Of a stretch of DNA of 64,000 nt, positions 4,293-55,194 are shown one piece after another. The notes under the pieces were generated by a model. That model saw only the letters and a list, made by a program, of their open reading frames with translations. It was not told the origin of the DNA and ran no database searches. Source of the DNA: a virus; IMG/VR virus record IMGVR_UViG_3300033153_007973, positions 1 to 64,000 of that record; one strand, 5' to 3'. Position 1 is the first letter of the stretch. Each line of letters begins with the position of its first letter. The position numbers and the translations under genes were made by a program.

Positions 4293-4688
4293 TTAATCCT
4301 CCTTTTTGAGCTGATCGATTTGTGTTTTTAGTTCGTTGATAATGTCTTCGTCGCCTAATCCGTAGTTTTGTAGCGTTTTTATAAATGCAGTAGATGCTTC
4401 TCTTAGTTTGCGAAGATCATCGAATATTTTCATTAGTCTTCGTCCTGCTATAAGAATATTTGGCCCAACTACTGATCTTGAGTTAAGACTTATTCTAATT
4501 TTCATACTTTCCATGCTACTAAATGATGTATTAATATGTACTTGCATATTTTCACACCATTTTATAACTGCTGCGAGAGTTGTTTGTTTCTCTCGTTTTC
4601 GGTGGGGATGGTTGATATTCAGTTTCTTGTCACTTGTGGGGTCAAATAATTGGCCATTTGGATCATTTTGTGCATGTTTTATTCTCAT
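4293..4688 (-). CDS. hypothetical protein with N-terminal QLFDP motif
   Basis: Track ORF in co-directional tight packing; N-terminus MRIKHAQNDPNGQLFDPTSD carries a variant of the LFDP motif family. Confidence 0.4.
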   Translation of the reverse strand: MRIKHAQNDPNGQLFDPTSDKKLNINHPHRKREKQTTLAAVIKWCENMQVHINTSFSSMESMKIRISLNSRSVVGPNILIAGRRLMKIFDDLRKLREASTAFIKTLQNYGLGDEDIINELKTQIDQLKKED

Positions 4689-4694
4689 AGTTTG

Positions 4695-5096
4695 TTACGA
4701 ATCTCTTTTTGTCCTTTCCCACTCTAGAATACGTGGCATTACTGCTATCTTAAATGCTGTGAGGAGTTTATCAACTCCTTGTGCTGTTACATCATTAGAA
4801 ATCATAGATCTTTCAAGTGTAGCTATAATCTCACACCAAATTTTATTATATGGATCGATTACTTCTCTGATGTTTGACACAGCAATTTTAAGGTTTAAGC
4901 CACTACTACAGAGTTCCATTCCACAAGTGTTAGTTGTTACTCTCACTCCGTTATCTAGGAACTCAATTCTTGCGCGGTTTTCTTTGCACCATTCTTGTGC
5001 GTCTTCTTCCTCTTTCGTCTCTGTCTTCTTCTCTTCTTTAACTTCTTTGATTGGTTCTCCTGGGATGGGGTCGAAGATGTTGTCAATATCGGGCAT
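4695..5096 (-). CDS. hypothetical protein with N-terminal DNIFDP motif
   Basis: Track ORF. N-terminus MPDIDNIFDPIPGEP. A second DDLFDPY is encoded just upstream in another frame (track ORF 4955..5155). Confidence 0.4.
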   Translation of the reverse strand: MPDIDNIFDPIPGEPIKEVKEEKKTETKEEEDAQEWCKENRARIEFLDNGVRVTTNTCGMELCSSGLNLKIAVSNIREVIDPYNKIWCEIIATLERSMISNDVTAQGVDKLLTAFKIAVMPRILEWERTKRDS

Positions 5097-5260
5097 ATGT
5101 CACCTCTGTATGGATCAAATAAGTCATCGTTACTTTTCAGGACTTTTGATCTCATTTTATTGCCTTCTTTAGTGCTAAGAATAGACAGAACGGCATGATG
5201 ATTATAACCACTACTGCAATAACTAGTATATTAGCTGATGGTGCTTCGCATTTTTCCATT

Positions 5261-18831: not shown

Positions 18832-19196
18832 TTGTTACTCCTTAGTCTTTTTATATGGGTCAAATAGTTCATCTATACTGAATTTTCTCGACTTATGCTG
18901 CTTTCGTTTTGGCCGCTATTCTTGATATATGCTTTCTTCATCTTCTTTGTTATCTTATCTGACATATGCTACTCCTTCTTGATTATGAAACTAGTTCCTA
19001 CCATTACACTTTGCTCAATTTCTCTTCTTAGCCTTCTCAGCTTTAGGAAACTGAACATATATCGGAATTTAGGTATCTTGATGACGATAGTGTTATTTTC
19101 TCCTGGTTCTATTTTATACCAGTTGAAACCAAGGAATAACATGATTTGTTCATAATCATATATACTAACTAATGTTCTTAACATCTGTTACTCCTT

Positions 19197-28801: not shown

Positions 28802-29005
28802 TCACATAGTGGCATCCCAGTCTGTGATCTCCTCTTCAATCTTGAAAGAGAAGTTAACGCAGTCCTTACACTTTTTATAATTGAAATCCTTTCCGACCCC
28901 CTTTACGGGGCAAGGCTTGTTTGCAATTAGGCAAATGCCTAGGCCTTCGATATACCAGTTCTTGTGCTTAGGTTCTCCATCTTTCCAGCGATCTTGGCTA
29001 CCCAT
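28802..29005 (-). CDS. hypothetical Cys-containing protein
   Basis: 67-aa track ORF. Confidence 0.3.
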   Translation of the reverse strand: MGSQDRWKDGEPKHKNWYIEGLGICLIANKPCPVKGVGKDFNYKKCKDCVNFSFKIEEEITDWDATM

Positions 29006-29744
29006 CTTTCTTTGCCCTCCCAGTTATACCGATTTGTCTGAGAATCGGTGTTATATTACCATGTGTAGAAGCACAATATGGCCATTTTGGATCAAATAAG
29101 AATGTGTTTGTATCTATTACTGGTGCTCTTATATTTACGATTATATTGTCCTTAAGTCTGTATTCCTGGTACTTTTTCTCATTGATTGCTTTTACTACTG
29201 AACAGTGATCTTCATCATCATCTGAGAAGTCCTCGTTTTCGAATATACACCATCCTCCGACACCACTCGGACTTTTCTCGTCTTCTTCGAGTGGATCAAC
29301 TTCTCCACAGATAAGTCTGTCTTCTTTATTTCGATTGAGTATTTCACAGTGTGGGTATTCTTTTATAACGTCATACTCATTTCTGCCAATCCACATTGCT
29401 CTTGATTCCTCTGATTTGCCGCCAGTTCTGGCACCTTCCCATATTGTGTAGAACTTCTCTATAGCTTCTAGGATACTGTCAGCTTCTATCATTATTTGAC
29501 TAGAACGTCTTCCCGTGAGATATCGTCTGATATTTGATGGTATTAGATCTTTCTTCTTATTGTATCTGAAGTATAATCCGACATTATCTACACATATGAG
29601 TTTCTCTGGTCCCCAATTTGTGGAACCCGAACTGCGGACCATTATTGGTATCTTGTATATAAATCTGGGGCTACTAGAGAATGGTTCTGGCAAGCCTGGC
29701 AATGTTCCTTGCATCGTCTCCACCATTATGAGGTCGTCCTTCAA
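28998..29744 (-). CDS. hypothetical protein
   Basis: 248-aa track ORF with an acidic stretch. Confidence 0.4.
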   Translation of the reverse strand: MKDDLIMVETMQGTLPGLPEPFSSSPRFIYKIPIMVRSSGSTNWGPEKLICVDNVGLYFRYNKKKDLIPSNIRRYLTGRRSSQIMIEADSILEAIEKFYTIWEGARTGGKSEESRAMWIGRNEYDVIKEYPHCEILNRNKEDRLICGEVDPLEEDEKSPSGVGGWCIFENEDFSDDDEDHCSVVKAINEKKYQEYRLKDNIIVNIRAPVIDTNTFLFDPKWPYCASTHGNITPILRQIGITGRAKKDG

Positions 29745-30312
29745 ATTCCATATTCTTTATTTTAAGGGCACTACTAACGCCTTTGCCCTTCTTAATCTTC
29801 TCTCTGAATGAGAACAGGGTCTTAATGTTAATATGAGAGTCTCTGAATGGATACTTGATTTGTTTACGATTGCATTCTCTATGGAATTGCTTACGATCAT
29901 AATCGCCCCAGGATGCCCAGACTGTATCTTTGAGCTTTGGCACAAGACGAATTAACTCATCTAGTGCTTCTTTCAAGGGTATTCCGCCTTCTGTAAGCTC
30001 TTCTTCAGTGTGTCCTGTGAGCTCTGTGCAGAACTCACTGATATCCATGACACTAGGTTTTACGAGTATGCTGCCGCTGGCAGATGTTCTCCAGTCTGGA
30101 TGTTGAATGATTGCCCATCCGATTTCGATGATCTCCATTTCTTTCTCGATCTTAGTTTGGAGTCCATCTTTAGCATCTGTATTTTTCCAACACGTTGCCT
30201 CTAAATCTATAATAAGTAGCTTGTTAAGTTCCGTCCTGGTCATTTGCTGCTTCCTCTTGTACTGGATTGAATATTTCATCTTGAGTGGGTTGTTTTGGTA
30301 ACTCTGCTTCAC
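29674..30312 (-). CDS. DEDDh-family 3-prime-5-prime exonuclease (oligoribonuclease/RNase T-like)
   Basis: Exo I LIIDLEATCW, Exo II EIIEIGWAI, Exo III HNGGDDARNIARL. Confidence 0.7.
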   Translation of the reverse strand: MKQSYQNNPLKMKYSIQYKRKQQMTRTELNKLLIIDLEATCWKNTDAKDGLQTKIEKEMEIIEIGWAIIQHPDWRTSASGSILVKPSVMDISEFCTELTGHTEEELTEGGIPLKEALDELIRLVPKLKDTVWASWGDYDRKQFHRECNRKQIKYPFRDSHINIKTLFSFREKIKKGKGVSSALKIKNMEFEGRPHNGGDDARNIARLARTIL

Positions 30313-30532
30313 CGCGGCAGACTTTGATCATATGTCGCTTCTCAGCTTCGAGTATGTTTTCATCGATTTCAAAGAACTTGGCTAGTATTTTTGGAATGTT
30401 GTGATATCTATCTCCTGTTCTTAGATAGTCTTTCTCGTATGCCCATTCCATGAATTCCCCTATCTTCTGGGAATACTTTGCTACTTTATCTAGTTTGTCG
30501 TGTTCTGGATATCCGCTCATGTTTTTCTCCAT
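30224..30532 (-). CDS. hypothetical protein
   Basis: 102-aa track ORF. Confidence 0.35.
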   Translation of the reverse strand: MEKNMSGYPEHDKLDKVAKYSQKIGEFMEWAYEKDYLRTGDRYHNIPKILAKFFEIDENILEAEKRHMIKVCRGEAELPKQPTQDEIFNPVQEEAANDQDGT

Positions 30533-30768
30533 GGATCGAATAGTTCACTCATAGTTGGCTTCGCTGGTTCTATAACTTTCTGTTTTCTAAGAGTAATCTC
30601 GAGTGTTGCTCTTGCTTCTTCCTTTTTAATGTAGTTCATAAATGAGTTCATGAATCTATTATCTACTATGAGTGTTTTCTCATCCATAGCTTGTCGAATA
30701 TCTTGTATCTCTGTAACTCTTCGTTCTAGTTCGTCTAATGTATCCATCATTTTATGAGTGCTAGCCAT
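30517..30768 (-). CDS. hypothetical protein with C-terminal PTMSELFDP tail
   Basis: Ends AKPTMSELFDPWRKT; member of the LFDP-tail family. Confidence 0.45.
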   Translation of the reverse strand: MASTHKMMDTLDELERRVTEIQDIRQAMDEKTLIVDNRFMNSFMNYIKKEEARATLEITLRKQKVIEPAKPTMSELFDPWRKT

Positions 30769-30776: not shown

Positions 30777-30983
30777 CTAGACAATAGTACCCTTATCTTC
30801 CTTCGCTTCCTTAACAGCTTTATCGAATTCTTCTCTTCTCAGTGGATCTGGATCGAATAAATCATTCATTGATGGTTTGGGTACTGGTTTGAATACTATA
30901 GTAAACTTTGCGTATCCTGATGGGCTACCACCTCTGTCTATTCTGACGTAGCCAGGAGTATTAGTATTATATTCAGTGTTCAT
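30777..30983 (-). CDS. hypothetical protein carrying a PSMNDLFDP motif
   Basis: KPVPKPSMNDLFDPDPLRREEF; LFDP-family member. Confidence 0.45.
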   Translation of the reverse strand: MNTEYNTNTPGYVRIDRGGSPSGYAKFTIVFKPVPKPSMNDLFDPDPLRREEFDKAVKEAKEDKGTIV

Positions 30984-31037: not shown

Positions 31038-32246
31038 TTATTTCTTTGATGCTTTGCTTTTCACGCCAGCATCTCTCATCATTTTCTTGGAGAGATCATA
31101 CATGGCGTTGTAACCCATGGCAGCCAAGGGATTCTCGGCGCCACCACTTTTACCACTGTTGCCGCTCATTACGACACCAGGGAAGCGAGTCTTCGAAAGG
31201 TTCTTCGAGACTGCATCAGCAATCTTGAGATCAAATTCTGCCCTTTCTCTTGGTGTAAGTCCGGCAGCTACCAAAGCTCGGTTAGCTGCGGCCTTGGCTG
31301 CACCCTCGGCTCTGACCTTCTTGGCTGTTTCCAGAGCTCTTTTAGCTGCATACTGCTCGACTTCGAATGCTTTCTGGGCTTCGGTAACTGCAGCGACTCT
31401 GATAACGTCCTTCTCGGCTTTGGCCTTGGCGATTTTGGCTTTACCCATTTCCAGGGCAGTAATTGTATCCTGCTTTGCGCGGATGGCTGCTTGTTTCGCT
31501 AGCTCTGTAGCCATAGCTTCATCCTTGCGTTTGGCGATCATTTTCTCGACTTGCTCGTCAAACTGTGGTACGTCAATTACACATTGGTTGATGACGCAAC
31601 CAATTTTGGCGAGTTGGTTCGGGAGACGCTTAGGATTTCCGGCTTTGTCTCTTACAATAACAGTAACCTTCTGCATCTCTTTGGCGCCGACTGATTTCTC
31701 AATATATCGGGTGTCGGACTTGGTGACGTAAATGCCGTTCTGAAGCTGATCTTCAACTGCCTGTTGGAACAGTGCCAGTGTGGTGTATGCGTCCTGTGCA
31801 CTTCTTAGGTTCGCGGACAGCTTGACAGCATTCTGGACGATGGGAACCACACCGGATACGATAAAGTGATCGAATCCCGCGGCATAGTCGTTCTTCAGTT
31901 GGAGTGCTCCCTCAACCGTTTTCGGTAACTGGATTCTGACCAGGCCAGAGATCTGGGCTTTAGAGCCGTCATTGAAGATAACTGGAATAGCACTGATGTC
32001 GGCGGTTCCTTCACCCTTTGATTTTCCGAACCCGACCGTAGCCACGTTCTTGTAGGTAAAGATCTCGCCGAACATTTGTGCATACCAGCCTGGCCTAAGC
32101 CTGACTGACATGGAGCCTGTTCCGGCTGCTTGCTTGACCTGAAAGTATCCTGCTCTGTTTACCTCAAAGAGGGATCCTGCACACAGAAGGAGGACGAAGC
32201 CAGCGATACAGACGCCAATGACAATCTTCATCTTTTGGGTCATCAT
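31038..32246 (-). CDS. SPFH/band-7 (HflK/prohibitin-like) membrane protein
   Basis: N-terminal TM IVIGVCIAGFVLLLCAG, then an SPFH-like core and an Ala/Lys/Glu-rich coiled-coil tail. Confidence 0.7.
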   Translation of the reverse strand: MMTQKMKIVIGVCIAGFVLLLCAGSLFEVNRAGYFQVKQAAGTGSMSVRLRPGWYAQMFGEIFTYKNVATVGFGKSKGEGTADISAIPVIFNDGSKAQISGLVRIQLPKTVEGALQLKNDYAAGFDHFIVSGVVPIVQNAVKLSANLRSAQDAYTTLALFQQAVEDQLQNGIYVTKSDTRYIEKSVGAKEMQKVTVIVRDKAGNPKRLPNQLAKIGCVINQCVIDVPQFDEQVEKMIAKRKDEAMATELAKQAAIRAKQDTITALEMGKAKIAKAKAEKDVIRVAAVTEAQKAFEVEQYAAKRALETAKKVRAEGAAKAAANRALVAAGLTPRERAEFDLKIADAVSKNLSKTRFPGVVMSGNSGKSGGAENPLAAMGYNAMYDLSKKMMRDAGVKSKASKK

Positions 32247-33355: not shown

Positions 33356-34408
33356 TTATTTTCCATGAACGATATCATTGAACTTTTCGTTTGCGTCATA
33401 TCCCCATTCTCGACCGATTTTACACTCTTCTTCTTCATCAACCTTGAAGATATCAGCTGTGCACGTGGGTCCTTTAGGGATGAAACTTCCGGTACCGATA
33501 CCATCAAACGCATCTTTGACATGCATAAAGGCTTCTGTCTTCACGGCGTCAAATCCTGAGGATACAAAGATCTTAACGCCTTTTCCACCTGCTGCATCGA
33601 GTTCACTGCGTAAACGAGCAACGGCATTCATAGTAACACCTTTCTCTAGGGCATTTGAGGAACTGTCAATCTGAGCATAGTTCTCACCACAAGTGTCGGT
33701 GCGTACTCCATAAAGCTTGTCTCCACAGTGTTTAAGGAGTGATAAAGTATCATCAATCTCCTTATTATTATAATCGATCAGGGCAATAAACTTGTCATCT
33801 GGGAGAGCTTTCATGTATGCATCTGCCATCTTGATATAATCTCCGCGGAAGATAGCAATCAAAGCATGAGGTGTGGTTCCTATTCCTTTACCAGAAGGTA
33901 GGTCAATTTGATTGATAATGTTACGTATATCATCGGCACGGTTACTGAGATAATTCTGTGCTTCTGCTCCTGTATCAGTACTGACTCCTCTGATTCCGCC
34001 AACGTATCCACCATATGATGCTAGTGCAACAGATTCTGCACCATAGAGATGACGTGCAGAGAAATCAAGAACTGGTTTCCCATCTGCTGCGTTCACAATT
34101 GCTTTGGCATGATATGCACAGTAACAAGGTAGAGCGCACCATTGAAGGTAAAGAGTCTCGAGCTCTACGATGTTCTGGAAGAATCCTTTTACAATCATCA
34201 TAGTATCACCAGATTTAAACTCAGTTCCAGTGGGAAGGATATCGATATCTGACATGGGTGCTAGTGTTCTGATCAGTGCCGCTGCAGGTTCGAGTGCAGC
34301 AATACCATTAGAGCGACCAAATATACGATATGATACTCGTGGATTCATCCTGGTTTCCTCAGCAACAATTCGGGATTTGCTGAAGTACTTATCTGTGAAT
34401 GGATTCAT
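33356..34408 (-). CDS. nicotinate/nicotinamide phosphoribosyltransferase-like protein
   Basis: 350 aa whose overall pattern resembles NAPRTase/Nampt phosphoribosyltransferases; it is translationally coupled to the PncA gene. Confidence 0.55.
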   Translation of the reverse strand: MNPFTDKYFSKSRIVAEETRMNPRVSYRIFGRSNGIAALEPAAALIRTLAPMSDIDILPTGTEFKSGDTMMIVKGFFQNIVELETLYLQWCALPCYCAYHAKAIVNAADGKPVLDFSARHLYGAESVALASYGGYVGGIRGVSTDTGAEAQNYLSNRADDIRNIINQIDLPSGKGIGTTPHALIAIFRGDYIKMADAYMKALPDDKFIALIDYNNKEIDDTLSLLKHCGDKLYGVRTDTCGENYAQIDSSSNALEKGVTMNAVARLRSELDAAGGKGVKIFVSSGFDAVKTEAFMHVKDAFDGIGTGSFIPKGPTCTADIFKVDEEEECKIGREWGYDANEKFNDIVHGK

Positions 34409-34962
34409 TTGCTGGACCCATTTTGCACAGTTATACCGTATAGGGTCAACATACGTTGAAGAGCAGCTTCCCCTGCTTCTGGTATCAGATCATCTACGAG
34501 ATCTTTGTGAACAATGATTTTCGGGAGCTTCTTATCTTGGTTCTTCATCTCATTGATGATCGAGGTAACGACATCATGGACACAAATGCTTGTGCATACA
34601 CCAGTTATATGGATTTCGGGATTTTCCTTACCCTCACACCAGTCTATGATGTTATTAACAATGCAAGCAGATGTATATCCCTTCTTGACAAAGCGAATAA
34701 TGGCTTTGTTCTCCGGAATAGCATCTTCAATAGGTTCAACGATCTTCGTACCTTCTGTCTCTTCGATACAGTGTTCTGGGAACAGCTTGAATTCAGGATC
34801 ACCTTTGCTGTGTCTGTCCATGGTGAGCATAATATCACCATCAAATGCTTTGACGAAATTGGCTACACGACCTTGAAGTTCTTTCGTGTCGTGACCAATA
34901 TACAACTTACCATCCTTATTTAGAAAGTCATTCTGCATATCTACTACGATTAGTAATTTCAT
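34405..34962 (-). CDS. pncA: nicotinamidase PncA (isochorismatase-fold)
   Basis: MKLLIVVDMQNDF is the signature start of nicotinamidase/isochorismatase hydrolases; catalytic Cys context TGVCTSICV. Confidence 0.75.
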   Translation of the reverse strand: MKLLIVVDMQNDFLNKDGKLYIGHDTKELQGRVANFVKAFDGDIMLTMDRHSKGDPEFKLFPEHCIEETEGTKIVEPIEDAIPENKAIIRFVKKGYTSACIVNNIIDWCEGKENPEIHITGVCTSICVHDVVTSIINEMKNQDKKLPKIIVHKDLVDDLIPEAGEAALQRMLTLYGITVQNGSSK

Positions 34963-35402
34963 CTTGTTCTCCCTTTTAGTTTATTTATTTATTTACTGCA
35001 GTAAGAATAATTAGTATTGCACAAATTAATATAATGCCGCCCATCTTTCCTCCCAAATAAGTCAAAAAACACCCCCATTATGGGGGTGTTCTAGTATCCC
35101 TTTGCCTATTTTTCTACATGATCTCTGCGATTTTCTCAATCGCTGTTGCTTGATCATGAAGCATGTTCGCGGCAGCCATCAAATGAGACTGGACTGTCAT
35201 GTGTTTAGGTTTTCTGGATTGAACTTGTCTGTTCTTGGCTCCGGGCGGACGACCGCGCTTTCTCTTCTTTTTCTTTGCCATAATATTCCTCCTTCCCAGT
35301 ATTGTCCATCTTATTGGATAATACTGTTAATAGATTCATATATTGCTGATTATCGTAATCTCTATTCTTTCTGTTCCTTCTCTGCTTGTTCCTTGGCCTT
35401 TT

Positions 35403-36128
35403 TCATCCCAACTCCTCCAGTAATGCCTTGACTTGCGCTCGGTCGCGTTCCACGCACTCTACCGTAAGCACGTTACCTGTTCCAGAGCAATCTATCCACC
35501 GCCCTGCCAGCTTCGCCACGTCCCTCAGTAGGTCACGATACTTCCCGTTGCTAACTCGAAGAGATCCAACTTTGCTCAGCTTTTGGACCCCCCGTAGTCT
35601 CGTAACAAGGTCGGGGTCGCGCAACACCACCTTCATAGCGTTCTTCATCCCCTCCTTGCGGGTCAGATTATTCACTGCGTCTCGCCCCGATGGGTCGCAC
35701 CTCGAACACTCATACGGGTTCGGTGGGTCGCACCTGTCATGCCCGTTGTCTGCTGGTCCTCCACAGGTAGGACATTTACTCAGGTCGGGTTGTTCGTATC
35801 TCATCGTGGCCTCCACAGCCTCAATCGCCTTCCCTATGTTGCTGGCAGCGATAGGCATGTTGTCAGTCTCTTCCAGCTTATCCGCATACCCACGGGCAAC
35901 CCACACCGCCAGATTAAGTAACGCTCTCTCTGTTTCCTGGGTCATTTGTTGTCGCCTCCTGATATGTGGGTCACTGTTATGGTTCCTTGCCTTCTTTAGC
36001 TTGATTGCCAGCATGCTCAATTCTGTTCTGCGTTCTGTGTATTCCGAAACACTTACCTTCGTGTTCATGGCTCGTTCAGTCAAACGCTCCACCAAATCCA
36101 GTAACGCTCTCTCTGTTTCCTTGGTCAT
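35403..36128 (-). CDS. hypothetical Cys-rich protein with duplicated N-terminal module (GC-rich island)
   Basis: MTKETERALLDL and MTQETERALLNL are each preceded by an SD; a 27-nt repeat occurs at about 35920 and 36097. Confidence 0.4.
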   Translation of the reverse strand: MTKETERALLDLVERLTERAMNTKVSVSEYTERRTELSMLAIKLKKARNHNSDPHIRRRQQMTQETERALLNLAVWVARGYADKLEETDNMPIAASNIGKAIEAVEATMRYEQPDLSKCPTCGGPADNGHDRCDPPNPYECSRCDPSGRDAVNNLTRKEGMKNAMKVVLRDPDLVTRLRGVQKLSKVGSLRVSNGKYRDLLRDVAKLAGRWIDCSGTGNVLTVECVERDRAQVKALLEELG

Positions 36129-36310
36129 TTCCCCTCCCTTACAATCACTTCGACCTTGTATGCCTTGGGGTTGTCCAGCGAGAGTTCCTTTCTTTGTCTC
36201 TTGCTTTGTATCGTGCGTATCCTTATCGCATCCATGAGGTGATCTAGGATGAGCGTTTCCGTACTCTCATCGTCATTCAGATCATATACCGTTACCATGC
36301 GTCTCTTCAT
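36125..36310 (-). CDS. hypothetical protein (GC-rich island)
   Basis: 61-aa track ORF. Confidence 0.3.
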   Translation of the reverse strand: MKRRMVTVYDLNDDESTETLILDHLMDAIRIRTIQSKRQRKELSLDNPKAYKVEVIVREGK

Positions 36311-40737: not shown

Positions 40738-41112
40738 TTATTCTTTGACTTTCTTGATCATATCTTCGAGTGCTTCGTTTGCCAGCTTTGCAATATTACT
40801 GGGTATCTTTTTGACATCCTCATTATTCGCGATCTTCGGTAAAACATAGATCATCGACATTGTTTTGGATGTTGGAATCAGCACTGAGATGGGAGTAAAG
40901 ATGAGACAGATAATTATTCCCCATTTCATGATCGGCCAAGCTTTCTCTGCATCGCAATCGCATTGTCTTCCATCTCTGTCGAAATCACTATTAGCGACAT
41001 ATGCAATGCCGGATATTACAGCTGTAATAGATGATAATGCAGCTATTACGATACAGATTGAAGAGATAGCATCCAACCTCGTAATAATGTAAATTGTCCA
41101 GCCTAAACTCAT
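40738..41112 (-). CDS. hypothetical multi-pass membrane protein
   Basis: Several hydrophobic segments. Confidence 0.45.
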   Translation of the reverse strand: MSLGWTIYIITRLDAISSICIVIAALSSITAVISGIAYVANSDFDRDGRQCDCDAEKAWPIMKWGIIICLIFTPISVLIPTSKTMSMIYVLPKIANNEDVKKIPSNIAKLANEALEDMIKKVKE

Positions 41113-41519
41113 GTTATTCCTCCTATTGGATCGAATAGTTCTTCCTGTGTTATTTTTTGGCTCTTCTCTTTCTTGGCTTTTGACTGATGCTGAACAAGAT
41201 ATCCAACAATTTCTGCATTCTCTGTATGAATAAAGCTTCCTGTTGAGATTTTATTAGACATTGTGATGTTGTACCCGAGGCTGGATCCAAGTTTATCGTT
41301 TGTTTGTATATATAATGAATTGCATCTAAATACCTTCCCGACAAAATCATTATACCATGCTGTTGGCTGCTGTTTCTTAATGACCTTGATTAGCATTGTT
41401 TTCTCTAAGTATATATTGTTAGTCTTGAGTTTAGCTATATTCTTGGATCGTAATACTGTATCAGAGACAATTCTTCGTCTCTCTGCTTTTGTTGCTGCGA
41501 ATAGTTCGCTACTCATCAT
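41109..41519 (-). CDS. hypothetical protein with C-terminal EELFDPIGG tail
   Basis: Ends QEELFDPIGGIT; the GGAGG encoding IGG serves as SD for the next gene. Confidence 0.45.
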   Translation of the reverse strand: MMSSELFAATKAERRRIVSDTVLRSKNIAKLKTNNIYLEKTMLIKVIKKQQPTAWYNDFVGKVFRCNSLYIQTNDKLGSSLGYNITMSNKISTGSFIHTENAEIVGYLVQHQSKAKKEKSQKITQEELFDPIGGIT

Positions 41520-42609
41520 GGCGTAAAAGCCAGTTCGGATTGACCACCTTGAACGAAAGTCGGCCTATATGGTCATCTCTGAGACTCTCATTGACTGATC
41601 TGATGACAATACCTTCTCTGATGTGATCGGGATAAATCTTGCTCATTCCTTTGGATATCTCGACCATTTCCTCTACTGAATTAGGTAGAGTAGTACTGTT
41701 CTCGAGTATGGGTACATGTTCAAATCCATATCTTTGGCAGAACTTAAGCATATCTTCAAAATCCAAGTACTTGGATGTTTGAAGGTCTAGAACGTTATAT
41801 ACAAAGACTTTGTGTTCCTTAAGTCTGTACTTGTTCTTCTGGATGCCAGGTCCGCAAAGCTCACCTTGTATGCAGATATCTTGGTTTACGCTACGTAGTT
41901 TCTCTTCGATACTATCTCTAAGTGCTACTACCCAGAATGTGTTTTGCTTCTTGGGTTTAGGTTTTATGAATAAGCTCTTGAACCATGCAGGAAAGCCTTT
42001 CTTCTCAATATCTGGAAGAATCTGCATATTCCTACTAGCAACACCGAATTCATCATCTCGGATCCAATATGATGCCGAGGAACCATCAAGTTTCTCTGTA
42101 ATATAGAATTGTTTATCGCAGTGTCGTCTAATAATTCCAGGTATTGTCTGAATTCTGTCTTCGTCTGTCTTTGGGATAAATCCTGGGCGTGTTTTCGTCC
42201 GGCGTCCGCTGAGCATAGCTGGCATCTGGGGCTCCCACTTGAGAATGCCCAGTACTTTGGTGACATCATCTCCAATCTGTAGTGCCTTGTCGCCTTCGGA
42301 TTGATCGATGATGCTCATAGGAAATGCAATACCCTGTGAGACTTGTTTACGCAGCTTGATGGTCTTAATTCGATATCCGCGGTCTTTGAGGAACTCGAAT
42401 TCAGGTCGTGGCGGTAGGATGCTATCTATTTCACAATAAACGCACTTGCTGCCGATTTTGAAGTCGTCCTTCTTGTTGATGACGACTTTCCACCCGAGGA
42501 TCGTCGCGACTTCGATTTGGTTCGCGTTCGGGATAGCTTTGATCGCTTTGATTTCTTGGATCGAGGCGAGCTTTCTGCTGATTTCGTTGTTACTGTTGTC
42601 TGTGACCAC
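41509..42609 (-). CDS. ATP-dependent RNA ligase (Rnl, KxDG nucleotidyltransferase superfamily; DraRnl/Rnl5-like N-terminal OB region)
   Basis: Motif I ITEKLDGSSASY; later IQGELCGPG (motif III/IV-like); N-terminal IEVATILGWKVV OB-like segment. Confidence 0.6.
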   Translation of the reverse strand: MVTDNSNNEISRKLASIQEIKAIKAIPNANQIEVATILGWKVVINKKDDFKIGSKCVYCEIDSILPPRPEFEFLKDRGYRIKTIKLRKQVSQGIAFPMSIIDQSEGDKALQIGDDVTKVLGILKWEPQMPAMLSGRRTKTRPGFIPKTDEDRIQTIPGIIRRHCDKQFYITEKLDGSSASYWIRDDEFGVASRNMQILPDIEKKGFPAWFKSLFIKPKPKKQNTFWVVALRDSIEEKLRSVNQDICIQGELCGPGIQKNKYRLKEHKVFVYNVLDLQTSKYLDFEDMLKFCQRYGFEHVPILENSTTLPNSVEEMVEISKGMSKIYPDHIREGIVIRSVNESLRDDHIGRLSFKVVNPNWLLRHDE

Positions 42610-42890
42610 GATGTAAATCCTCCGTTTGTCTGTTGAAGTGATGGTGATAATTGCTGATTTTCTGGTGTTACGAATATACTAGCGTATATATCAGTGCCAA
42701 TACATTTTGACTTACCATGATATTGTGTTTCCATAATTATAGCGTTGTTTTCTTCAACTCTTCCTGTATTTGCACTGTTTGTCTCTATTTGTCGTGTTAG
42801 TGATATGATGAGATTAAGTGCTTCTTGTCGAGTGATATGTATAAGGAATGAGTCAAGTCTTTTCTTCTTCTTGAGCAGTGTTATTTCCAT
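42426..42890 (-). CDS. hypothetical protein (true extent uncertain)
   Basis: Track ORF whose 3-prime 180 nt overlap the Rnl gene in another frame; its C-terminal S/R/K low-complexity part is probably not genuine. Confidence 0.25.
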   Translation of the reverse strand: MEITLLKKKKRLDSFLIHITRQEALNLIISLTRQIETNSANTGRVEENNAIIMETQYHGKSKCIGTDIYASIFVTPENQQLSPSLQQTNGGFTSWSQTTVTTKSAESSPRSKKSKRSKLSRTRTKSKSRRSSGGKSSSTRRTTSKSAASAFIVK

Positions 42891-42892
42891 TC

Positions 42893-43300
42893 TTATCTCC
42901 TATATGGGTCAAATAGGTCATTCATCGTTGCTGTAATTGCAGCGTGTGTTTCTATTACTGTAGGCTCCTTGTGCGCTATTGTCCATACAATGATATCTTC
43001 TATACCTATGGTCCAGTTGCAGTATCGATTAAGCTTTGAGATTACTTCTGTCTTAAATTCCTGGTGTGATATAACTGCGATGTCTCTTGGGCAACAATCC
43101 AGTAATATAGCTAATGCGAGTTGTGCTGGTCCCGATCCATTATATCCCCAACAGAATCCGTCTGGTGAGTGGCGAATCTCTTTTAGTGAGCGGTTTGGAG
43201 TTATCTGCTTTGGTAATTTTCCACTGCGATGTTTATATACAGTATATGTTTCATTGGGTGTTCCTGCATGAAGTATTACTCCTTGGTAATGGTCGCTCAT
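42893..43300 (-). CDS. hypothetical protein with C-terminal TMNDLFDPYRR tail
   Basis: Conserved DGFCWGYNGSGPAQLALAIL block; the tail encodes the downstream SD AGGAGA. Confidence 0.45.
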   Translation of the reverse strand: MSDHYQGVILHAGTPNETYTVYKHRSGKLPKQITPNRSLKEIRHSPDGFCWGYNGSGPAQLALAILLDCCPRDIAVISHQEFKTEVISKLNRYCNWTIGIEDIIVWTIAHKEPTVIETHAAITATMNDLFDPYRR

Positions 43301-43821
43301 TATTTCTTCCTTAGTGGGTCGAATAAGTCATTCATTGTAGGAGGCTTTATCTCCTTTGGTTTACGTTGCCACCATGATCTGGTTCTCTTTACTTTGCCTG
43401 GGAATATTACTTTCTCGATGTGTCTTGTATAGCATAGACTTAGTATTCTACCTTGATCATATGGAAAAGGTATCTTTACAGAAACATGGACATCTGCTCT
43501 TTTCGTAATCATTACTAGTCGACCTATGAGTTCTATTGGTACGTTTCCATGTACAGTCATTTCATCGTTGACTTGGATGTAATCTCCTATTCCATATTTT
43601 GGATATAATCTAACTGGTACGAGGCATTTGCCTTCGTACCATTCTATATCTTTATCCATTGATATGGATTTGCTTCTTTCTCGCCAAGTTTTAATCTTAA
43701 GCTTAAGTCTCCAGAACCATCCAGGTTTCTGGCCATTAGAACGAGTGGCAGTGATCATGGTGAATAGTATATGTCCGCAAACAGCACCACCTGCAATGAG
43801 CAAGACAGTATCAGCGCTCAT
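43300..43821 (-). CDS. membrane-anchored hypothetical protein with C-terminal PTMNDLFDPLRKK tail
   Basis: N-terminal TM LLIAGGAVCGHILFTMI; ATGA start/stop overlap with neighbours. Confidence 0.45.
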   Translation of the reverse strand: MSADTVLLIAGGAVCGHILFTMITATRSNGQKPGWFWRLKLKIKTWRERSKSISMDKDIEWYEGKCLVPVRLYPKYGIGDYIQVNDEMTVHGNVPIELIGRLVMITKRADVHVSVKIPFPYDQGRILSLCYTRHIEKVIFPGKVKRTRSWWQRKPKEIKPPTMNDLFDPLRKK

Positions 43822-44257
43822 GCTTTCCTCCTATCGGATCGAATAGGTCATCACTTGTTGGCATATTTCTCTTTCTTGCGGTGTTCTTCTTTGCTGATTT
43901 AGATCGTTTCTTTCTTGTTAGAGCTACTCGAGCTTTTCCTATTTGTATATCGATTTGATGGAATACCTCCGTCATTGGAGTATTTGGAAAACCAGTAAGT
44001 TCGAATTCATATAACGTACGACCACTAAATGCTCGGGTATGAAATCTGATCTTTATTCCCCATAAATATTCAAGTCTGTCTTGATTATAATAAGATGTTC
44101 TCATATTATATGAGACATATAGTTTGTAGTCTTCACATATTTCACGCCAAAATCGCACATACTTCTTTACGGAAGTGATTCTATCTACTGTGGGTGGCTT
44201 AGGTATAATAATATGTATAGCTTCGAGCACTTTACCATTAATCGGTGGAATGGGCAT
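43811..44257 (-). CDS. hypothetical protein with C-terminal TSDDLFDPIGGKHER tail
   Basis: The tail codons GGAGGAAAG act as SD for the next gene. Confidence 0.45.
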   Translation of the reverse strand: MPIPPINGKVLEAIHIIIPKPPTVDRITSVKKYVRFWREICEDYKLYVSYNMRTSYYNQDRLEYLWGIKIRFHTRAFSGRTLYEFELTGFPNTPMTEVFHQIDIQIGKARVALTRKKRSKSAKKNTARKRNMPTSDDLFDPIGGKHER

Positions 44258-44258: not shown

Positions 44259-44564
44259 TTATCTCCTTATCTTATCTATACCGCTGATCATTCTCATAAC
44301 TACTATGCCTTGGAGCACGAATGAACCGATCTTCATAACTACTGATTCCACGGGGAATCCCATTCGTTTCACCAATACTATTGGTAGAGATAGATGAATA
44401 ACTCCTATTATTAAATGTAATAGTGCTACCATAATATCTAGATCACCTCCCTTGTCAAGCATATTTCTCTGAAATATGTCGACCAAGCTAAGCATTATTG
44501 TGAGGATATGTAGGCAGGGCGCTTTTGAACTTTTGTTGTGCGTTTGCGACTGGCTCCGCCACAA
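44259..44564 (-). CDS. small membrane protein
   Basis: Hydrophobic LHLIIGVIHLSLPIVLV. Confidence 0.35.
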   Translation of the reverse strand: MWRSQSQTHNKSSKAPCLHILTIMLSLVDIFQRNMLDKGGDLDIMVALLHLIIGVIHLSLPIVLVKRMGFPVESVVMKIGSFVLQGIVVMRMISGIDKIRR

Positions 44565-45334
44565 AGCCTTACACGCTAAGCTGTCGATAACTGACAGCCG
44601 GAGTTGAGAAACCAGAGGCGCGGTTCATGCCGAGTTTCGCAATTCCGGTGATCTGGGCTGCTGTTGTCGAAAACTGATAATATTCGACCCAACTAGCATT
44701 ACGCACGTAAGCTGTCGCTGACTGACGGGGCGGGACAATCACCTGTAATTTGAGGGTGTTGGAGGGGGATCCCTGGATCCGCATTTAAACAGAATTACAG
44801 GTGATTGTCGCTGTGTTACTGCTATTTGACATAGGCTGTAAATAGCATCGGCAAACAAGAGTATGCACGTTATTATCTATAACTGATGGTATTTGTTGTC
44901 GGTTGATGGGTCGTAAAACTGGAAGGAATTCTACCATTACGGCTATTAGGAGTTGTGAGCACGACTTTCATCTTTGCGCAAAAACAAAAGCTGTTGACTT
45001 TGTGCCTTTCAAATCAACAGCGGTTGTCTTTGCGTTGGCAAAGATGAAAGGTGGCGCGGAACAAATCCGGAGCTGTAAGTAGTATAGTAGTGCAAATCGG
45101 TATATGTGTGTCATCTAACTGCTGATGGATAAAAGAAGGGGGCGAGCAATAATGCTCACCCCCTTTGTGTTGATTGACCTGGATGGAGTTACAGACTGCT
45201 CCATCGCTCTGACTAGTGATGTGATGACTTTCTAAATCGAGCTTTTGGATCGGGTCGATTGTTAAAGTCGTACCGGTTCGCAGGTCTCCACGGAACGCAG
45301 AGTCCGGGTTCTGTCTGTACACATTATTAGCCAG

Positions 45335-46063: not shown

Positions 46064-46296
46064 TTTCCCGCAGCCCTCCCTTCGAGTTCGAGGTCGACTA
46101 TCTTGCCCACGATGTCTTCAGCCTTGCCTTCCATCTGTTTGGCAAGTGCTTCGATCTCATCGATGTTCAGGGCTATTTCCCCTTTCTCGGGCACGTCTAG
46201 CATTTCCCTGAACTTCTTGGCCACATGTGTGAAGAGCTCGGCTTCGCCCTTCAGCACAGGAATTTGCTTGCTTGCTTCCTTGAGTGATTCATTCAT
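46060..46296 (-). CDS. hypothetical protein
   Basis: 78-aa track ORF. Confidence 0.35.
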   Translation of the reverse strand: MNESLKEASKQIPVLKGEAELFTHVAKKFREMLDVPEKGEIALNIDEIEALAKQMEGKAEDIVGKIVDLELEGRAAGK

Positions 46297-46679
46297 GGTG
46301 TTACCTCCATGTTCTCGAGGTCATCTAGGCTTGGTGCAGTTGCTTCCCAGATTCTCTCAGGTTCTACGGCCTTTTTGTCTATTGTATATTGGAAGGAGAT
46401 ATATAACTTTCCTTCCAAAAGATATGCGATAAACACACCAGAATATGGCCATTCGGGTATTGGTGGTTCGTGATGGAATGACCAGCATACGATGGCTTTC
46501 TTCTCACGTACCATCTTGGCCCACGGACTATTTGTATTGGGATTCTGTTCGTAGATATTGTGCTCTTTGCCCTTGAGGTAGTTGAATCCTCTTGAGCTAA
46601 CATCGTGTCTAGGAGTATGTGGCCCACGACCAAACACACCTAGCATAATGTTTTTCTGCTGCTGCTTGGTGAGGGTCAC
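46293..46679 (-). CDS. hypothetical protein
   Basis: 128-aa track ORF. Confidence 0.35.
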   Translation of the reverse strand: MTLTKQQQKNIMLGVFGRGPHTPRHDVSSRGFNYLKGKEHNIYEQNPNTNSPWAKMVREKKAIVCWSFHHEPPIPEWPYSGVFIAYLLEGKLYISFQYTIDKKAVEPERIWEATAPSLDDLENMEVTP

Positions 46680-48585: not shown

Positions 48586-49071
48586 CTAGAATAGGTTCTC
48601 CTTGATCTCTTTTCTGACATGCAGCCCCTCACGGATTTCCATCAGGATACGGCCCAGCATATTCTCTCCATGCATGGTTGTCAAGTCCTTTCCCCAGAAT
48701 ACGTCATTCCAGGTATTACCCTCGATGAGTTCTTCTGTGCCGGTTTTCAGCAGCATATTTGCTAACTGGGGCTTGGAGAACTTCTTGCGAACCAGCATCC
48801 GCATGATGGTTACTCTTACTTCCTGCCAGTCACTACGTAAGCTGACCTGCCGGCCGGCACGCTTGGCCTGGCCTGGTGAGGCTAGGTTGGATATTCTTAC
48901 TCTCTCTTTGATATCAGGGGTTTTACACGCCTGAAACGCATGCTCTACAGATGGGTAGTTCACACCATCGTGCACGAGTGTTGTTGGGAAGAAATTACTC
49001 AGAAAGAAGTGGCCTCCCTGGAATATCTTTATCATGTTATTTCTCCTTCTTGAGATATGCTTCTTCTGCAT
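48586..49071 (-). CDS. NADAR-domain (YbiA/DUF1768-like) protein
   Basis: FQGGHFFLSNFFP...YPSVEHAFQACK matches the YbiA/NADAR core (FFxxLSNFxP...SvEHyfQa.K). Confidence 0.65.
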   Translation of the reverse strand: MQKKHISRRRNNMIKIFQGGHFFLSNFFPTTLVHDGVNYPSVEHAFQACKTPDIKERVRISNLASPGQAKRAGRQVSLRSDWQEVRVTIMRMLVRKKFSKPQLANMLLKTGTEELIEGNTWNDVFWGKDLTTMHGENMLGRILMEIREGLHVRKEIKENLF

Positions 49072-49441: not shown

Positions 49442-49912
49442 TTACTCCTTATGGGGGTCGAATAAATCCGCTATGGATGCGACATCAGGGTAGGGTAATG
49501 GTGGTGGTCGTTGTGTCATAGTATCTTTGAATGAGCATAGAATAGAATACCGATTGTCATCGTGCATTCTGTCAGAGTCATGAATATAGTGTTTGCACTT
49601 CGTGCATTCATTTGCGCCCACTTTGTTTAAATATATGTATGGGCACTGTGTCATACATGCTCCGCTCACTCTTACGAGATAGTATATCTCTTCTGCCATA
49701 TCATGTCTTCTCCCTTTCTTTTGTCCTAAGATCATGTATGACCTGATCCAGGAGTTTGACCAGTCCTTGTGCGGATTCGAGTGAGAGTATAATCTCTTTC
49801 TTATCGTTGTATTCAGTAGTAGATCCATCACCGATAAATATGTTTGCCTCTCCGGTATTTGGTGTTTGGTCATCGAGATTATATCCCACGGAGATAGTAC
49901 GGTCAGCCTCAA
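49442..49912 (-). CDS. Cys-rich hypothetical protein with C-terminal IADLFDPHKE tail
   Basis: LFDP-family member; the tail encodes the downstream SD. Confidence 0.45.
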   Translation of the reverse strand: MRLTVLSPWDIISMTKHQIPERQTYLSVMDLLLNTTIRKRLYSHSNPHKDWSNSWIRSYMILGQKKGRRHDMAEEIYYLVRVSGACMTQCPYIYLNKVGANECTKCKHYIHDSDRMHDDNRYSILCSFKDTMTQRPPPLPYPDVASIADLFDPHKE

Positions 49913-49976
49913 AAGTCTGTGTTATCGTTTCGCGTTTAAGCATGGTCATTCTCCTTATATGGATCAAATAATTCAT
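49701..49976 (-). CDS. hypothetical protein (likely true start MTMLKRE near 49946)
   Basis: Track ORF; an SD AAGGAG precedes the internal ATG. Confidence 0.3.
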   Translation of the reverse strand: MNYLIHIRRMTMLKRETITQTFEADRTISVGYNLDDQTPNTGEANIFIGDGSTTEYNDKKEIILSLESAQGLVKLLDQVIHDLRTKEREKT

Positions 49977-50289
49977 CCACTGATTTGATTCGACTCTTCC
50001 AGTGACATATTATAAACTTTTGATCATAGTTTAGGTATCCTCCAGCATGAGGACATATATTAACACACCATATGGATCCTATGTATACTAGATGGTCTAT
50101 GTCAATTGGATGATGTGAACATGTTCCTTTCGTTTCTACTTTCGTGTCCATATAGTTACATTGTTGTGTTTCTCCATGGGTTTCAGGCATGGTCTGACTT
50201 CCTGAGGGGTTAGCCCTCCATATCCAATACCAGGATAGTTTAGATGATACTGTTGTTTGGGATTGTCTTGTGCTATTTTGGTTAAGCAC
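49936..50289 (-). CDS. Cys/His-rich hypothetical protein with C-terminal SVDELFDPYKENDHA tail
   Basis: LFDP-family member. Confidence 0.45.
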   Translation of the reverse strand: MLNQNSTRQSQTTVSSKLSWYWIWRANPSGSQTMPETHGETQQCNYMDTKVETKGTCSHHPIDIDHLVYIGSIWCVNICPHAGGYLNYDQKFIICHWKSRIKSVDELFDPYKENDHA

Positions 50290-51580: not shown

Positions 51581-51883
51581 CTAATCGGTTACCGGTCGAG
51601 GTGCGCCGATTCCCTTACTTATATTAAGATATTCTGCTATCACGTGACCGTGGCAAGCTTTTGGTGAACAGTAACATACGATATGTTTCCCTCGTAGTTC
51701 TGATACTGCCTTAAAGAATGTAGTATCATTGCGCATTCTTTCATGAAAGTGTTTCTCGAACTTCTCGATAACTTGTGTTCTGTCTCCATCCTTACCTATT
51801 ACGTAGGGATTACCATAGGGAGAACCACGGCCGATATATACGTCTCCAGGTTTCTTGTCCTTAATGTGACCTACAGTTGTCAT
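51581..51883 (-). CDS. small conserved protein (GSPYGNPY...CYCSPKACHGHV motif)
   Basis: The pattern recalls a DUF4326-like family; the assignment is unverified. Confidence 0.3.
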   Translation of the reverse strand: MTTVGHIKDKKPGDVYIGRGSPYGNPYVIGKDGDRTQVIEKFEKHFHERMRNDTTFFKAVSELRGKHIVCYCSPKACHGHVIAEYLNISKGIGAPRPVTD

Positions 51884-52149
51884 GATTTCTCCCGATGTGG
51901 ATCGAATATCTCATCCATTGTAGGTTGAGGTAGTGCTGGTATGTGTTGTGTTCTCTTGGCTTCAGGATAGTGACAGTAAACTAAACCTGTGATGCTGATG
52001 TCGGTTGCGCGAATTACTTCCTTACCGTCGAAGCACTTACAGGTTTGACATCTTATCGAGCTTACTCTACATGGTTGGTGATGTGGGCATGGTGGATTAG
52101 TTATACTTGATGTACCATATACTTGCACTGTATATCTATGTGTATGCAT
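51880..52149 (-). CDS. Cys-rich protein with C-terminal PTMDEIFDPHREKS tail
   Basis: LFDP-family member. Confidence 0.45.
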   Translation of the reverse strand: MHTHRYTVQVYGTSSITNPPCPHHQPCRVSSIRCQTCKCFDGKEVIRATDISITGLVYCHYPEAKRTQHIPALPQPTMDEIFDPHREKS

Positions 52150-53575: not shown

Positions 53576-53673
53576 TTAACTAGACCTCCTTAAGGTCGTT
53601 GAGGGATATGAACTGAGTGGCTCCTGACCGAGTCTCATAAAAGATGCGAACTCTCAGTTGAACATGATAATGG

Positions 53674-54000: not shown

Positions 54001-54038
54001 AGAATGCCTCCTTTCAAATGAGATGCGAAATCATGGTA

Positions 54039-54284: not shown

Positions 54285-54288
54285 AATA

Positions 54289-55135: not shown

Positions 55136-55194
55136 ACGTAGTTAGGTGTGGGAAAAAGAGAGCGCGAACACCTGTTGTGGTGCCCGCGCGCTTC

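Follow-up and report, generated by a model that had tools for sequence, protein, structure and literature searches.

A short peptide centred on [DE]-L-F-D-P, usually placed a few residues before the stop codon, is shared by at least 12 otherwise unrelated small proteins encoded in the first 64,000 nucleotides of IMG/VR virus record IMGVR_UViG_3300033153_007973. This stretch, hereafter the window, covers 64 kb of a 234-kb contig under which the protein database lists this phage's proteins, and we read it as part of an uncultivated jumbo-type phage. The shared tag is real, statistically secure and undescribed, and selection acts on the peptide. It very probably functions at the peptide level, and we lean, at somewhat better than even chances, towards its being a lineage-specific short linear motif, that is, a modular peptide tag. 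Docking of the carriers to a single common partner is the probable role of the tag; that this partner is the phage's Clp unfoldase-ClpP system is a tentative proposal. An earlier note on this DNA had drawn attention to the tail and had argued that it is a selected peptide that looks like a docking motif. This core argument holds as far as sequence analysis goes, and the note's interpretation is supported in part, docking or targeting being a plausible role for the tail.

A six-frame scan of the window confirmed the shared tail: ten exact copies of [DE]LFDP were found, all on the minus (coding) strand, whereas 2000 shuffles of the 13,891 predicted-protein residues gave a mean of 0.034 and a maximum of one. 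Relaxing the pattern to [DE][LI]F[DN]P added a further C-terminal copy, PTMDEIFDPHREKS, and PTQDEIFNP followed by 12 residues. In all, ten exact and four to five variant copies, against about 0.03 expected, are concentrated at protein termini. Ten copies, the EIFDP and EIFNP variants included, sit 3-12 residues before the stop, one lies 23 residues before it, and three are found at residues 6-17 of their open reading frames (ORFs; positions 5111, 5067 and 4638). This terminal concentration has P ~1e-8 in a test that used the conservative figure of 9/12 copies near the stop. In an unbiased k-mer count over all predicted proteins, LFDP was the sole recurrent 4- or 5-mer. The extended consensus is the nonapeptide [PT]-[ST]-[MIVQ]-x-[DE]-[LI]-F-[DN]-P. 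After the proline come 3-7 residues, which are dictated by the Shine-Dalgarno sequence of the next gene; they begin IGG, YRR, LRK, HKE, YKE, WRK or HRE, and the tails end in GGIT, YRR, RKK, HER, RKT, HKE, DHA or EKS.

The tagged genes all lie on the minus strand; core coordinates below are those of the five-residue core, and C-terminal tails are given up to the stop. Four genes form the main cluster. The first (41109..41519, core 41127-41141, tail QEELFDPIGGIT / KAKKEKSQKITQEELFDPIGGIT) encodes a soluble, basic protein of 136 residues that belongs to no Pfam family. The second (42893..43300, core 42905-42919, tail TMNDLFDPYRR, TATMNDLFDPYRR) encodes a protein of 135 residues with a DUF6166 domain. 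The third (43300..43821, core 43315-43329, tail PTMNDLFDPLRKK / KPKEIKPPTMNDLFDPLRKK) encodes a membrane-anchored protein of 173 residues, in which positively charged residues come after an N-terminal transmembrane helix (hydropathy 2.02 at residue 5); the positive-inside rule then predicts that its body and tail are cytoplasmic. The fourth (43811..44257, core 43835-43849, tail TSDDLFDPIGGKHER / MPTSDDLFDPIGGKHER) encodes a protein of 148 residues with the polybasic linker RKKRSKSAKKNTARKRN. A HMMER search of 1.84 billion cluster representatives found no true homologue of the body of this last protein; the other match was a spurious translation of a tandem repeat and was rejected. The four genes had been described as consecutive, which is not the case, since the first is separated from the second by the RNA ligase gene (41509-42609) and by an ORF that begins at 42890. 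This ORF (42426-42890, minus) starts directly after the DUF6166 gene and stays open until 184 nucleotides inside the RNA ligase gene; the part that overlaps the ligase gene is Ser/Lys/Arg-rich, and the gap is unannotated in the metagenome gene calls.

Three tagged genes lie together at 30983-30224. One (30517..30768, core 30532-30546, tail PTMSELFDPWRKT / EPAKPTMSELFDPWRKT) encodes 83 residues. Another (30777..30983, core 30849-30863, PVPKPSMNDLFDP) encodes 68 residues and carries PSMNDLFDP followed by 23 residues, so the motif need not abut a stop codon or the next Shine-Dalgarno sequence. The third (30224..30520, core 30263-30277, ELPKQPTQDEIFNP) encodes 98 residues and bears the variant PTQDEIFNP followed by 12 residues. 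Immediately upstream of the three is a gene (31038-32246, minus) for a membrane-anchored SPFH/Band-7 protein of 402 residues. A further three carriers are Cys/His-rich. The protein encoded at 49442..49699 (85 residues; core 49454-49468, tail SIADLFDPHKE, PPPLPYPDVASIADLFDPHKE) also has a Pro-rich linker; the other two are encoded at 49936..50151 (about 71 residues, start uncertain; core 49960-49974, tail SVDELFDPYKENDHA / KSRIKSVDELFDPYKENDHA) and at 51880..52149 (89 residues; core 51898-51912, the relaxed-pattern tail given above, IPALPQPTMDEIFDPHREKS). The coordinates given in the earlier note were right, with one correction: the ELFDPYKENDHA carrier is the gene at 49936-50151, separated from that at 49442-49699 by 49701-49943.

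Copies are also found at N-termini and nearly on their own. Directly upstream of the RNA polymerase gene, a gene for a protein of 131 residues (4293..4688, core 4638-4652) carries NGQLFDP near its N-terminus (MRIKHAQNDPNGQLFDPTSDKK), and the acidic protein of 133 residues encoded at 4695..5096 (core 5067-5081) begins MPDIDNIFDP (MPDIDNIFDPIPGEP); neither belongs to a Pfam family. A 66-codon ORF at 4955..5155 (core 5111-5125, MRSKVLKSNDDLFDPYRGD), whose first 15 residues are MRSKVLKSNDDLFDP, also has its copy at the N-terminus; downstream of the motif come the next gene's Shine-Dalgarno sequence and ATG, and the ORF overlaps 4695-5096 out of frame for about 45 codons. At 18835..18915 (core 18856-18870, SIDELFDPYKKTKE / RPKRKQHKSRKFSIDELFDPYKKTKE) a tail without a body occupies an ORF of 26 codons that lacks a start codon. 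It is overlapped in another frame by an ORF of 30 codons encoding MSDKITKKMKKAYIKNSGQNESSISRENSV, so this locus could be a frameshifted gene or an assembly indel; it could also be a pseudogene. It has a tRNA-Pro and an HNH gene just upstream and a Fic gene just downstream. Two further candidates are less secure. The protein of 242 residues encoded at 28998..29726 has FLFDP at 29088 (DTNTFLFDPKWPY), 29 residues before the stop and without the acidic residue, and is a possible, weak member. The C-terminus ATAPSLDDLENMEVTP of the 128-residue protein encoded at 46293..46679 fits only the first six motif positions; it is possibly a degenerate member and is not statistically secure.

Comparison of the copies at the nucleotide level bore out the earlier note's statement that selection acts on the peptide. 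The 15-nucleotide core reads GAn-hTA-TTy-rAy-CCn across copies, and its five variable positions are all synonymous or conservative (P = 0.002 if any five of the 15 were free); the synonymous codon variants that had been listed are correct. Exact TATTYGAYCC occurs 14 times in the window, and 13 of these matches are in-frame copies of the motif on the coding strand; the lone plus-strand match lies at 44681. The next gene's Shine-Dalgarno sequence follows the motif by 1-14 nucleotides in all three registers, so that motif and Shine-Dalgarno sequence do not form one rigid RNA element. The folds predicted for the RNAs of nine junctions are no more stable than those of shuffles (z -1.3 to +0.5), and the structures vary from copy to copy. 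Since the variation is synonymous or conservative, the register takes all three values and no junction fold is significant, it is the peptide that is selected.

These data bear directly on the alternative that the conserved unit is a DNA or RNA element, such as a promoter, a processing site or a recombination linker for cassette shuffling, with the peptide as a by-product. Such an element would explain why the copies sit at gene boundaries and why a tail persists without a body at 18835-18915. It would also suit the codon for the motif's Leu or Ile, which is always NTA (CTA, TTA or ATA; 12 Leu and 2 Ile) and gives an invariant TATT, with P ~6e-6 against window-wide codon usage. The tagged genes are themselves AT-rich (GC 0.35-0.42), with YTA making up 58% of their other Leu codons, and when this usage is allowed for the invariance has P ~0.002. 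What at first counted as a strong codon bias was downgraded for this reason; the NTA codon is a weak nucleotide-level oddity, which we record as unexplained and not as evidence for a DNA or RNA function. Against an element of this kind, the other four wobble positions are free and the first and second codon positions fixed (P 0.002), the 13 of 14 matches share frame and strand, there is no significant RNA structure, and a scan of the window for sigma70-like sites found none that coincides with a tail. The invariant positions of the core are also too few and too interrupted for a recombination substrate. We consider a DNA or RNA element very unlikely. Two structures noticed on the way were dropped: a hairpin pairing the Leu codon with the Shine-Dalgarno region, seen by eye, was rejected on the folding results just given, and the T-loop resemblance of TTCGATCC was set aside, since TTT stands in half of the copies and a flanking stem is lacking.

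A different use of the same junctions would be at the ribosome. F-D-P together with the basic stretch in the exit tunnel might slow or arrest the ribosome before the next start, and in this way tune translational coupling, like the regulatory arrest peptides SecM, MifM and VemP. Selection on the peptide, the invariant proline and the basic upstream linkers agree with a nascent peptide of this type. So do the 3-7 codons between motif and stop, a distance similar to that in SecM. The motif ends 1-5 nucleotides before the Shine-Dalgarno sequence in 8/9 abutting cases, the two nearly body-less copies resemble leader peptides, and the invariant NUA codon could be a decoding-speed feature. The earlier note had proposed that the tail codons supply the next gene's Shine-Dalgarno sequence and so couple translation. 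Every abutting tail does contain that sequence, but junctions are equally tight throughout the window, each start having a Shine-Dalgarno sequence close before it, and in so tightly packed a genome closeness to a Shine-Dalgarno sequence is expected of any C-terminal feature. Moreover, copies lie 12 and 23 codons from the stop without a following Shine-Dalgarno sequence, two others are at residues 6-17 of long proteins, and the carriers include real folded proteins such as the DUF6166 protein. A single Asp-Pro is no known arrest sequence, and we know of no precedent for a dozen arrest peptides in 64 kb. A translational role of this kind seems quite unlikely.

The carriers themselves indicate how the tail is used. 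An all-against-all BLASTP comparison of 12 carriers with the motif masked gave nothing below E = 0.2, in agreement with the earlier description of the bodies as unrelated, and Pfam recognised DUF6166, in one carrier only. Lengths range from 68 to 173 residues and predicted pI values from 4.8 to 10; one carrier is membrane-anchored, three are Cys/His-rich and one has DUF6166. In the last, DUF6166 spans residues 36-106 (Pfam 1e-20) and is followed by a 26-residue extension carrying the tail. We retrieved 119 DUF6166 homologues, the best 56% identical; all end differently, and 119/119 are without the tail. The tail is an add-on, a module attached to unrelated proteins. An AlphaFold2 model of the DUF6166 carrier, based on a 64-sequence alignment, has a mean predicted local distance difference test score (pLDDT) of 91. 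In it, a helix at residues 100-129 runs through T-M-N-D-L and stops at F-D-P; M, L and F would lie on one face of this helix, a prediction for one carrier only. No match to the DUF6166 fold was found in the PDB. Compared with the C-terminal regions of other proteins, the 20 residues preceding the motif are rich in Lys/Arg (4.5 against 2.6) and Pro (1.7 against 0.7) and poor in Asp/Glu. The anatomy of a tagged protein is thus a body of any kind, folded or membrane-anchored, a linker of 10-25 residues rich in Lys/Arg and Pro, the nonapeptide, and 3-7 further residues.

The unrelatedness of the bodies must be set against the possibility that the carriers are old paralogues, which have diverged so far that only their tails can still be recognised as shared. 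The members are indeed all small and clustered, and three are Cys/His-rich. One body, however, is DUF6166, which is widespread and whose 119 other sampled members lack the tail, and the DUF6166 and membrane-anchored members already indicate different folds. The spread of lengths and pI values, the membrane anchor and the placement at the opposite terminus in three ORFs speak against common descent as well; conservation of the tail alone would in any case still demand a function. We find a paralogous remnant hardly credible. This explanation and that of a DNA or RNA element are contradicted by the substitution pattern, the constant reading frame and the DUF6166 result.

Searches elsewhere were negative. 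No Pfam family covers the tail, and the DUF6166 match (36-106 of 135) ends before it; the tail is therefore not the terminus of an already annotated domain, an outcome that the earlier note had named as one that would undo its argument. A profile of the tail run against 5.8 billion proteins gave no significant match, the profile being too short to reach significance against so many; one protein of the window was recovered, that encoded at 30777..30983 (P0001). Against PDB sequences the profile gave one chance match (E 1.6), and a full-text literature search for the word DLFDP found it in 18 papers, in every case within an unrelated list of peptides, in keeping with the earlier remark that this is not a described motif. 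The codons for MNDLFDP were found at ten loci in IMG/VR, all by chance; in metagenome contigs, among the matches listed, there were single chance matches and none that was multi-copy. The motif was absent from the loci of 23 relatives of the RNA ligase (~40% identity, 318 kb) and from the 22 kb examined of the only relative of the RNA polymerase, NCBI assembly GCA_020722765.1 (P0123, 32% identical). Since the database, relative-locus and literature searches were all negative, the motif is lineage-specific and undescribed. The tag is confined to one uncultivated lineage. Nucleotide and protein searches of deposited phages (INPHARED) gave no nucleotide match to the window and no useful protein match; in IMG/VR there was no relative of the 173-residue tagged protein and none of the RNA polymerase. 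Short contigs identical to the window are present in JGI metagenomes 3300033143 and 3300033148.

The genomic setting of the tagged genes suggests when they are used. Coding in the window is almost wholly on the minus strand, and the genes are tightly packed with strong Shine-Dalgarno sequences. Sigma70-like sites on the minus strand are in about twofold excess (20 against 10.2 in shuffles). One of them (44458-44431, minus; 11/12 match) lies just upstream of the main tagged cluster, and a strong terminator (45165-45136, minus) lies upstream of both the cluster and this promoter. Perfect 12/12 promoter matches occur at 26389 and 17498 (minus). The tagged genes stand in accessory-gene surroundings, downstream of sigma70-like promoters; the excess of such promoters, the 44458 site and the terminator suggest early transcription by the host polymerase. 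Among the accessory genes we found NAD synthase, a Fic protein, HD and HNH proteins, isochorismatase, NADAR and DUF4326, and a family search added an ATP-dependent DNA ligase and RtcB; the window has 11 tRNAs. One set, at 12040-12774, 33356-34962, 48586-49035, 51581-51883, 12869-14023 and 41509-42609, comprises NAD synthase, a NadV-like phosphoribosyltransferase, isochorismatase/nicotinamidase, NADAR, DUF4326, RtcB and the RNA ligase. With the 11 tRNAs, this set is typical of counter-defence and suggests that NAD is regenerated and tRNAs are repaired. At 44430-45330, 53600-55200 and 35000-36300 there are gaps of about 1 kb that contain no convincing ORF and have no Rfam match.

This setting bears on the idea, among those of the earlier note, that the tail is a signal for packaging into or ejection from the virion, docking cargo on shell, scaffold or portal inside the procapsid. 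Packaged cargo is typically marked by unrelated bodies that share a single terminal peptide, at one end or the other, joined through a flexible linker, as in the internal protein (IP)/capsid targeting sequence (CTS) system of T4 and the cargo-loading peptides of encapsulins. In addition, phages with multisubunit RNA polymerases often package one (PMC7598289). Here, however, the large RNA polymerase subunit lacks the full motif, one carrier has a transmembrane anchor, and the tagged genes lie amid accessory, anti-defence-type genes behind host-type promoters and not among structural genes. No capsid, portal or protease gene is near them, and a family scan of the window ORFs that have a Shine-Dalgarno sequence and at least 60 residues detected neither capsid nor portal nor scaffold proteins. 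The tail sequence is also unlike CTS and encapsulin peptides. Packaging as the function of the tail fits poorly with the membrane-anchored member, the accessory-gene setting and the host-type promoters, and we regard it as unlikely.

The phage Clp system that had been mentioned among the candidate hubs is indeed encoded in the window, and to it we add a transfer-messenger RNA (tmRNA). Full-length ClpP protease is encoded at 10896-11486 (minus; Pfam CLP_protease 1.4e-76, profile positions 2-181 of 182). Positions 1-540 (minus) encode the first 180 residues of a Clp/Hsp100 AAA+ unfoldase, namely an N-domain and the Walker A sequence GKTGVGKT, after which the gene runs off the window. This segment is 33% identical (E 8e-15) to the 717-residue Clp ATPase that adjoins ClpP in the relative; its Pfam matches are to the P-loop only. 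The N-domain contains TTMNEVL, the only match to [ST]M[NSD][DE][LIV] in the window outside the tails, which may be coincidence. The tmRNA lies at 24079-24457 (minus; Rfam RF00023, 49.4 bits against a gathering score of 47, E 1.7e-16) and was missed by ARAGORN. It has the G3:U70 acceptor pair, and its tag frame, (A)DETNANDTILVGNFGSMNQNVACA, ends in the helix-5 loop. ClpP, the N-terminus of the Clp ATPase and the tmRNA make up a phage-borne tagging and proteolysis set, and their presence in the same 64 kb is circumstantial context for a Clp partner.

We favour a docking motif because the peptide is selected, the termini that bear it are exposed, the linker is flexible and basic or Pro-rich, and the bodies are unrelated. 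The tail would form a short capped helix with a hydrophobic face of M/I/V, L/I and F, acidic flanks and a proline at its end, and would insert into a groove of the partner. In this way at least twelve different proteins, accessory and probably early ones, would be tethered to the same machine. The partner may be the N-domain of the phage's own Clp/Hsp100 unfoldase, working with the phage ClpP. Clp is preferred here because it is the one hub actually present in the window. Tags at either terminus and a membrane-anchored carrier with a cytoplasmic tail are typical of substrates and adaptors of AAA+ proteases (ssrA/SspB/ClpX), and the carriers, by this analogy, would suit as clients. By a second analogy, the order of body, linker, short peptide and few free residues would mirror SspB and a bipartite ssrA tag. 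On a Clp partner the tag might act in either of two ways: as a built-in degron timing the removal of the carriers, or as an adaptor tail, on the SspB model, with each body delivering a different bound target. In its fullest form, the latter would make the tagged proteins modular adaptors, with a separate host protein, such as a factor for defence or housekeeping, bound by each body and the DLFDP tail plugging into the Clp N-domain. This version is improbable as it stands. If true, it would mean that a single viral protease is redirected against many host substrates, as a bacterial-virus analogue of viral ubiquitin-ligase adaptors, and the phage tmRNA would feed the same Clp machine.

Several observations weigh against docking on Clp, or against a docking tag altogether. 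The relative with ClpP and a Clp ATPase has no motif in the 22 kb examined, so co-occurrence lends Clp no support. The window is 64 kb out of 234 kb, and the true hub may lie outside it. Pfam does not identify Clp_N in the N-domain of the ATPase, and a single-sequence AlphaFold2 model of the segment was unusable (pLDDT 37). The tmRNA tag ends in VACA, and the S-M-N that is all it has in common with the tails could be a chance match. Almost no protein body accompanies the copies at 18835-18915 and 4955-5155, and the invariant NTA codon is not accounted for by a purely peptide-level reading.

Short linear motifs that dock on a hub are central to eukaryotic and viral biology. For bacteria and phages, to our knowledge, only a handful have been studied in depth; they include clamp-binding motifs, the tip of single-strand-binding protein (SSB), ssrA/SspB and the T4 CTS. 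If one partner of the DLFDP tail were found, it would provide a shared mechanism for a whole class of 'dark' ORFan accessory genes. Were that partner the phage Clp machine, the tag would be a case of virus-run, tag-directed proteolysis in a bacterium; we know of no described example of a virus running its own system of this kind there. The tag is short, portable and defined at the level of residues, and is therefore directly testable though the phage is uncultivated.

Among the hubs that the earlier note had offered, a pocket of the host clamp or SSB falls outside the established definitions, as the sequences of the tails do not follow the canonical beta-clamp and SSB-tip motifs. A wider form of this idea deserves consideration, namely that the tail binds a sliding clamp, of phage or host, or another replication or transcription hub such as the phage RNA polymerase. 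This enzyme (608-4234, minus; 1208 residues) is of the multisubunit type, with the C-terminal part of beta fused to the N-terminal part of beta'. In its single relative (32% identity; locus L156, 10001-13900) the region is split into genes for 879 and 295 residues. Its N-terminus, MTSFNDLHVEF, fits the first six positions of the tail motif, and the two N-terminally tagged genes directly upstream of it, together with its own TSFNDL, speak for a hub of this kind. The tail of the RB69 polymerase contains L-F-D-x-F. Clamp-binding motifs have the form Q-aliphatic-x-[LM]-[FL] or Q-aliphatic-x-[LM]-x-[FL], for example QL[SD]LF, and are located in disordered N- or C-termini (PMC11139829). [DE]-L-F and the Asp after it correspond to positions 3-5 of the strongest beta-clamp peptide, QLDLF, and the favoured trailing negative charge (PMC11139829). 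None of the 14 tails, however, fits the canonical Q-aliphatic-x-[LM]-[FL]: Gln is at position 1 in two tails only (QEELF and QDEIF, in which position 2 is acidic), the others having M, I, V, S or N at position 1, and position 2 is never aliphatic. The invariant D-P occurs in no clamp-binding motif. No tail fits the PIP box Qxx[LIM]xx[FY][FY] either, since position 7 is the invariant Pro and the aromatic pair is missing. The carriers are not enzymes of DNA metabolism; the tail is missing from the window's RtcB and from its DNA and RNA ligases, whereas tiny Cys-rich and membrane-anchored proteins have it. The scan of window ORFs of at least 60 residues with a Shine-Dalgarno sequence found no clamp family.

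The nearest architectural precedent in a phage is the T4 clamp-binding motif (SCBM), which is 'short, hydrophobic and acidic', follows a divergent linker and is interchangeable among the unrelated gp43, gp33 and gp55 (PMC2988020, PMC7892883). The tails resemble it in being short hydrophobic-acidic peptides on variable linkers in unrelated carriers, a resemblance of architecture only. The T4 motif has three carriers, which are replication and transcription proteins; here there are at least 12, all small accessory proteins, with extra residues after the motif and N-terminal copies as well, and no clamp gene was seen in the 64-kb window. On balance, a clamp or similar hub is a doubtful partner, albeit one with a real precedent.

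The docking tag proposed here shares features with other known systems too. With the T4 CTS and encapsulin cargo it has in common one terminal peptide, a flexible linker and diverse, fast-evolving small proteins, several per genome. The CTS, in contrast, is N-terminal, about ten residues long and cleaved by the prohead protease, and its carriers occur in virions; the tails are mostly C-terminal and unrelated in sequence, and their carriers include a membrane protein and have an early, accessory-gene context. The SSB tip (D-D-D-[IL]-P-F-COOH) is likewise an acidic-hydrophobic, hub-docking peptide on a disordered tail, but it needs the terminal Phe carboxylate, whereas DLFDP is never terminal (at least three residues follow) and has a different residue order. 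The only protein of the window that ends in DIPF is encoded at 27094-27963 (minus). It has 289 residues, matches only PHROG families of unknown function and ends in VAENDIPF; with this SSB-type C-terminal tip it may be a single-strand-binding protein of the phage, to which partners of the host SSB are recruited. SecM, MifM and VemP share with the tails a peptide-level constraint, an invariant Pro, few codons to the stop and a position upstream of the next ribosome-binding site. They are single, dedicated monitoring ORFs with structured intergenic RNA, however, whereas the tails belong to many real proteins, show no RNA structure and in some copies lie far from any start site.

In SspB, finally, a flexible linker joins the body to a short C-terminal peptide, and it is this peptide that binds the N-domain of ClpX. 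The tagged proteins have the same body, linker and terminal peptide, in a genome that also encodes an unfoldase with an N-domain, a likeness of architecture and context only; with SspB and ssrA they further share the position at a terminus and the few free residues after the tether site. Their tails are unrelated in sequence to the XB peptide (LRVVK) and to ssrA (..YALAA), they do not end like an ssrA-type C-terminal degron (..LAA, or the ..VACA of the phage tag), and the only relative with Clp genes has no motif in the 22 kb examined. We know of no AAA+ adaptor or degron system in which such a tail is common to a dozen unrelated carriers. A modular terminal docking or targeting peptide is thus a known kind of element; what is new is the sequence, the number and diversity of its carriers, and the possible link to Clp and tmRNA.

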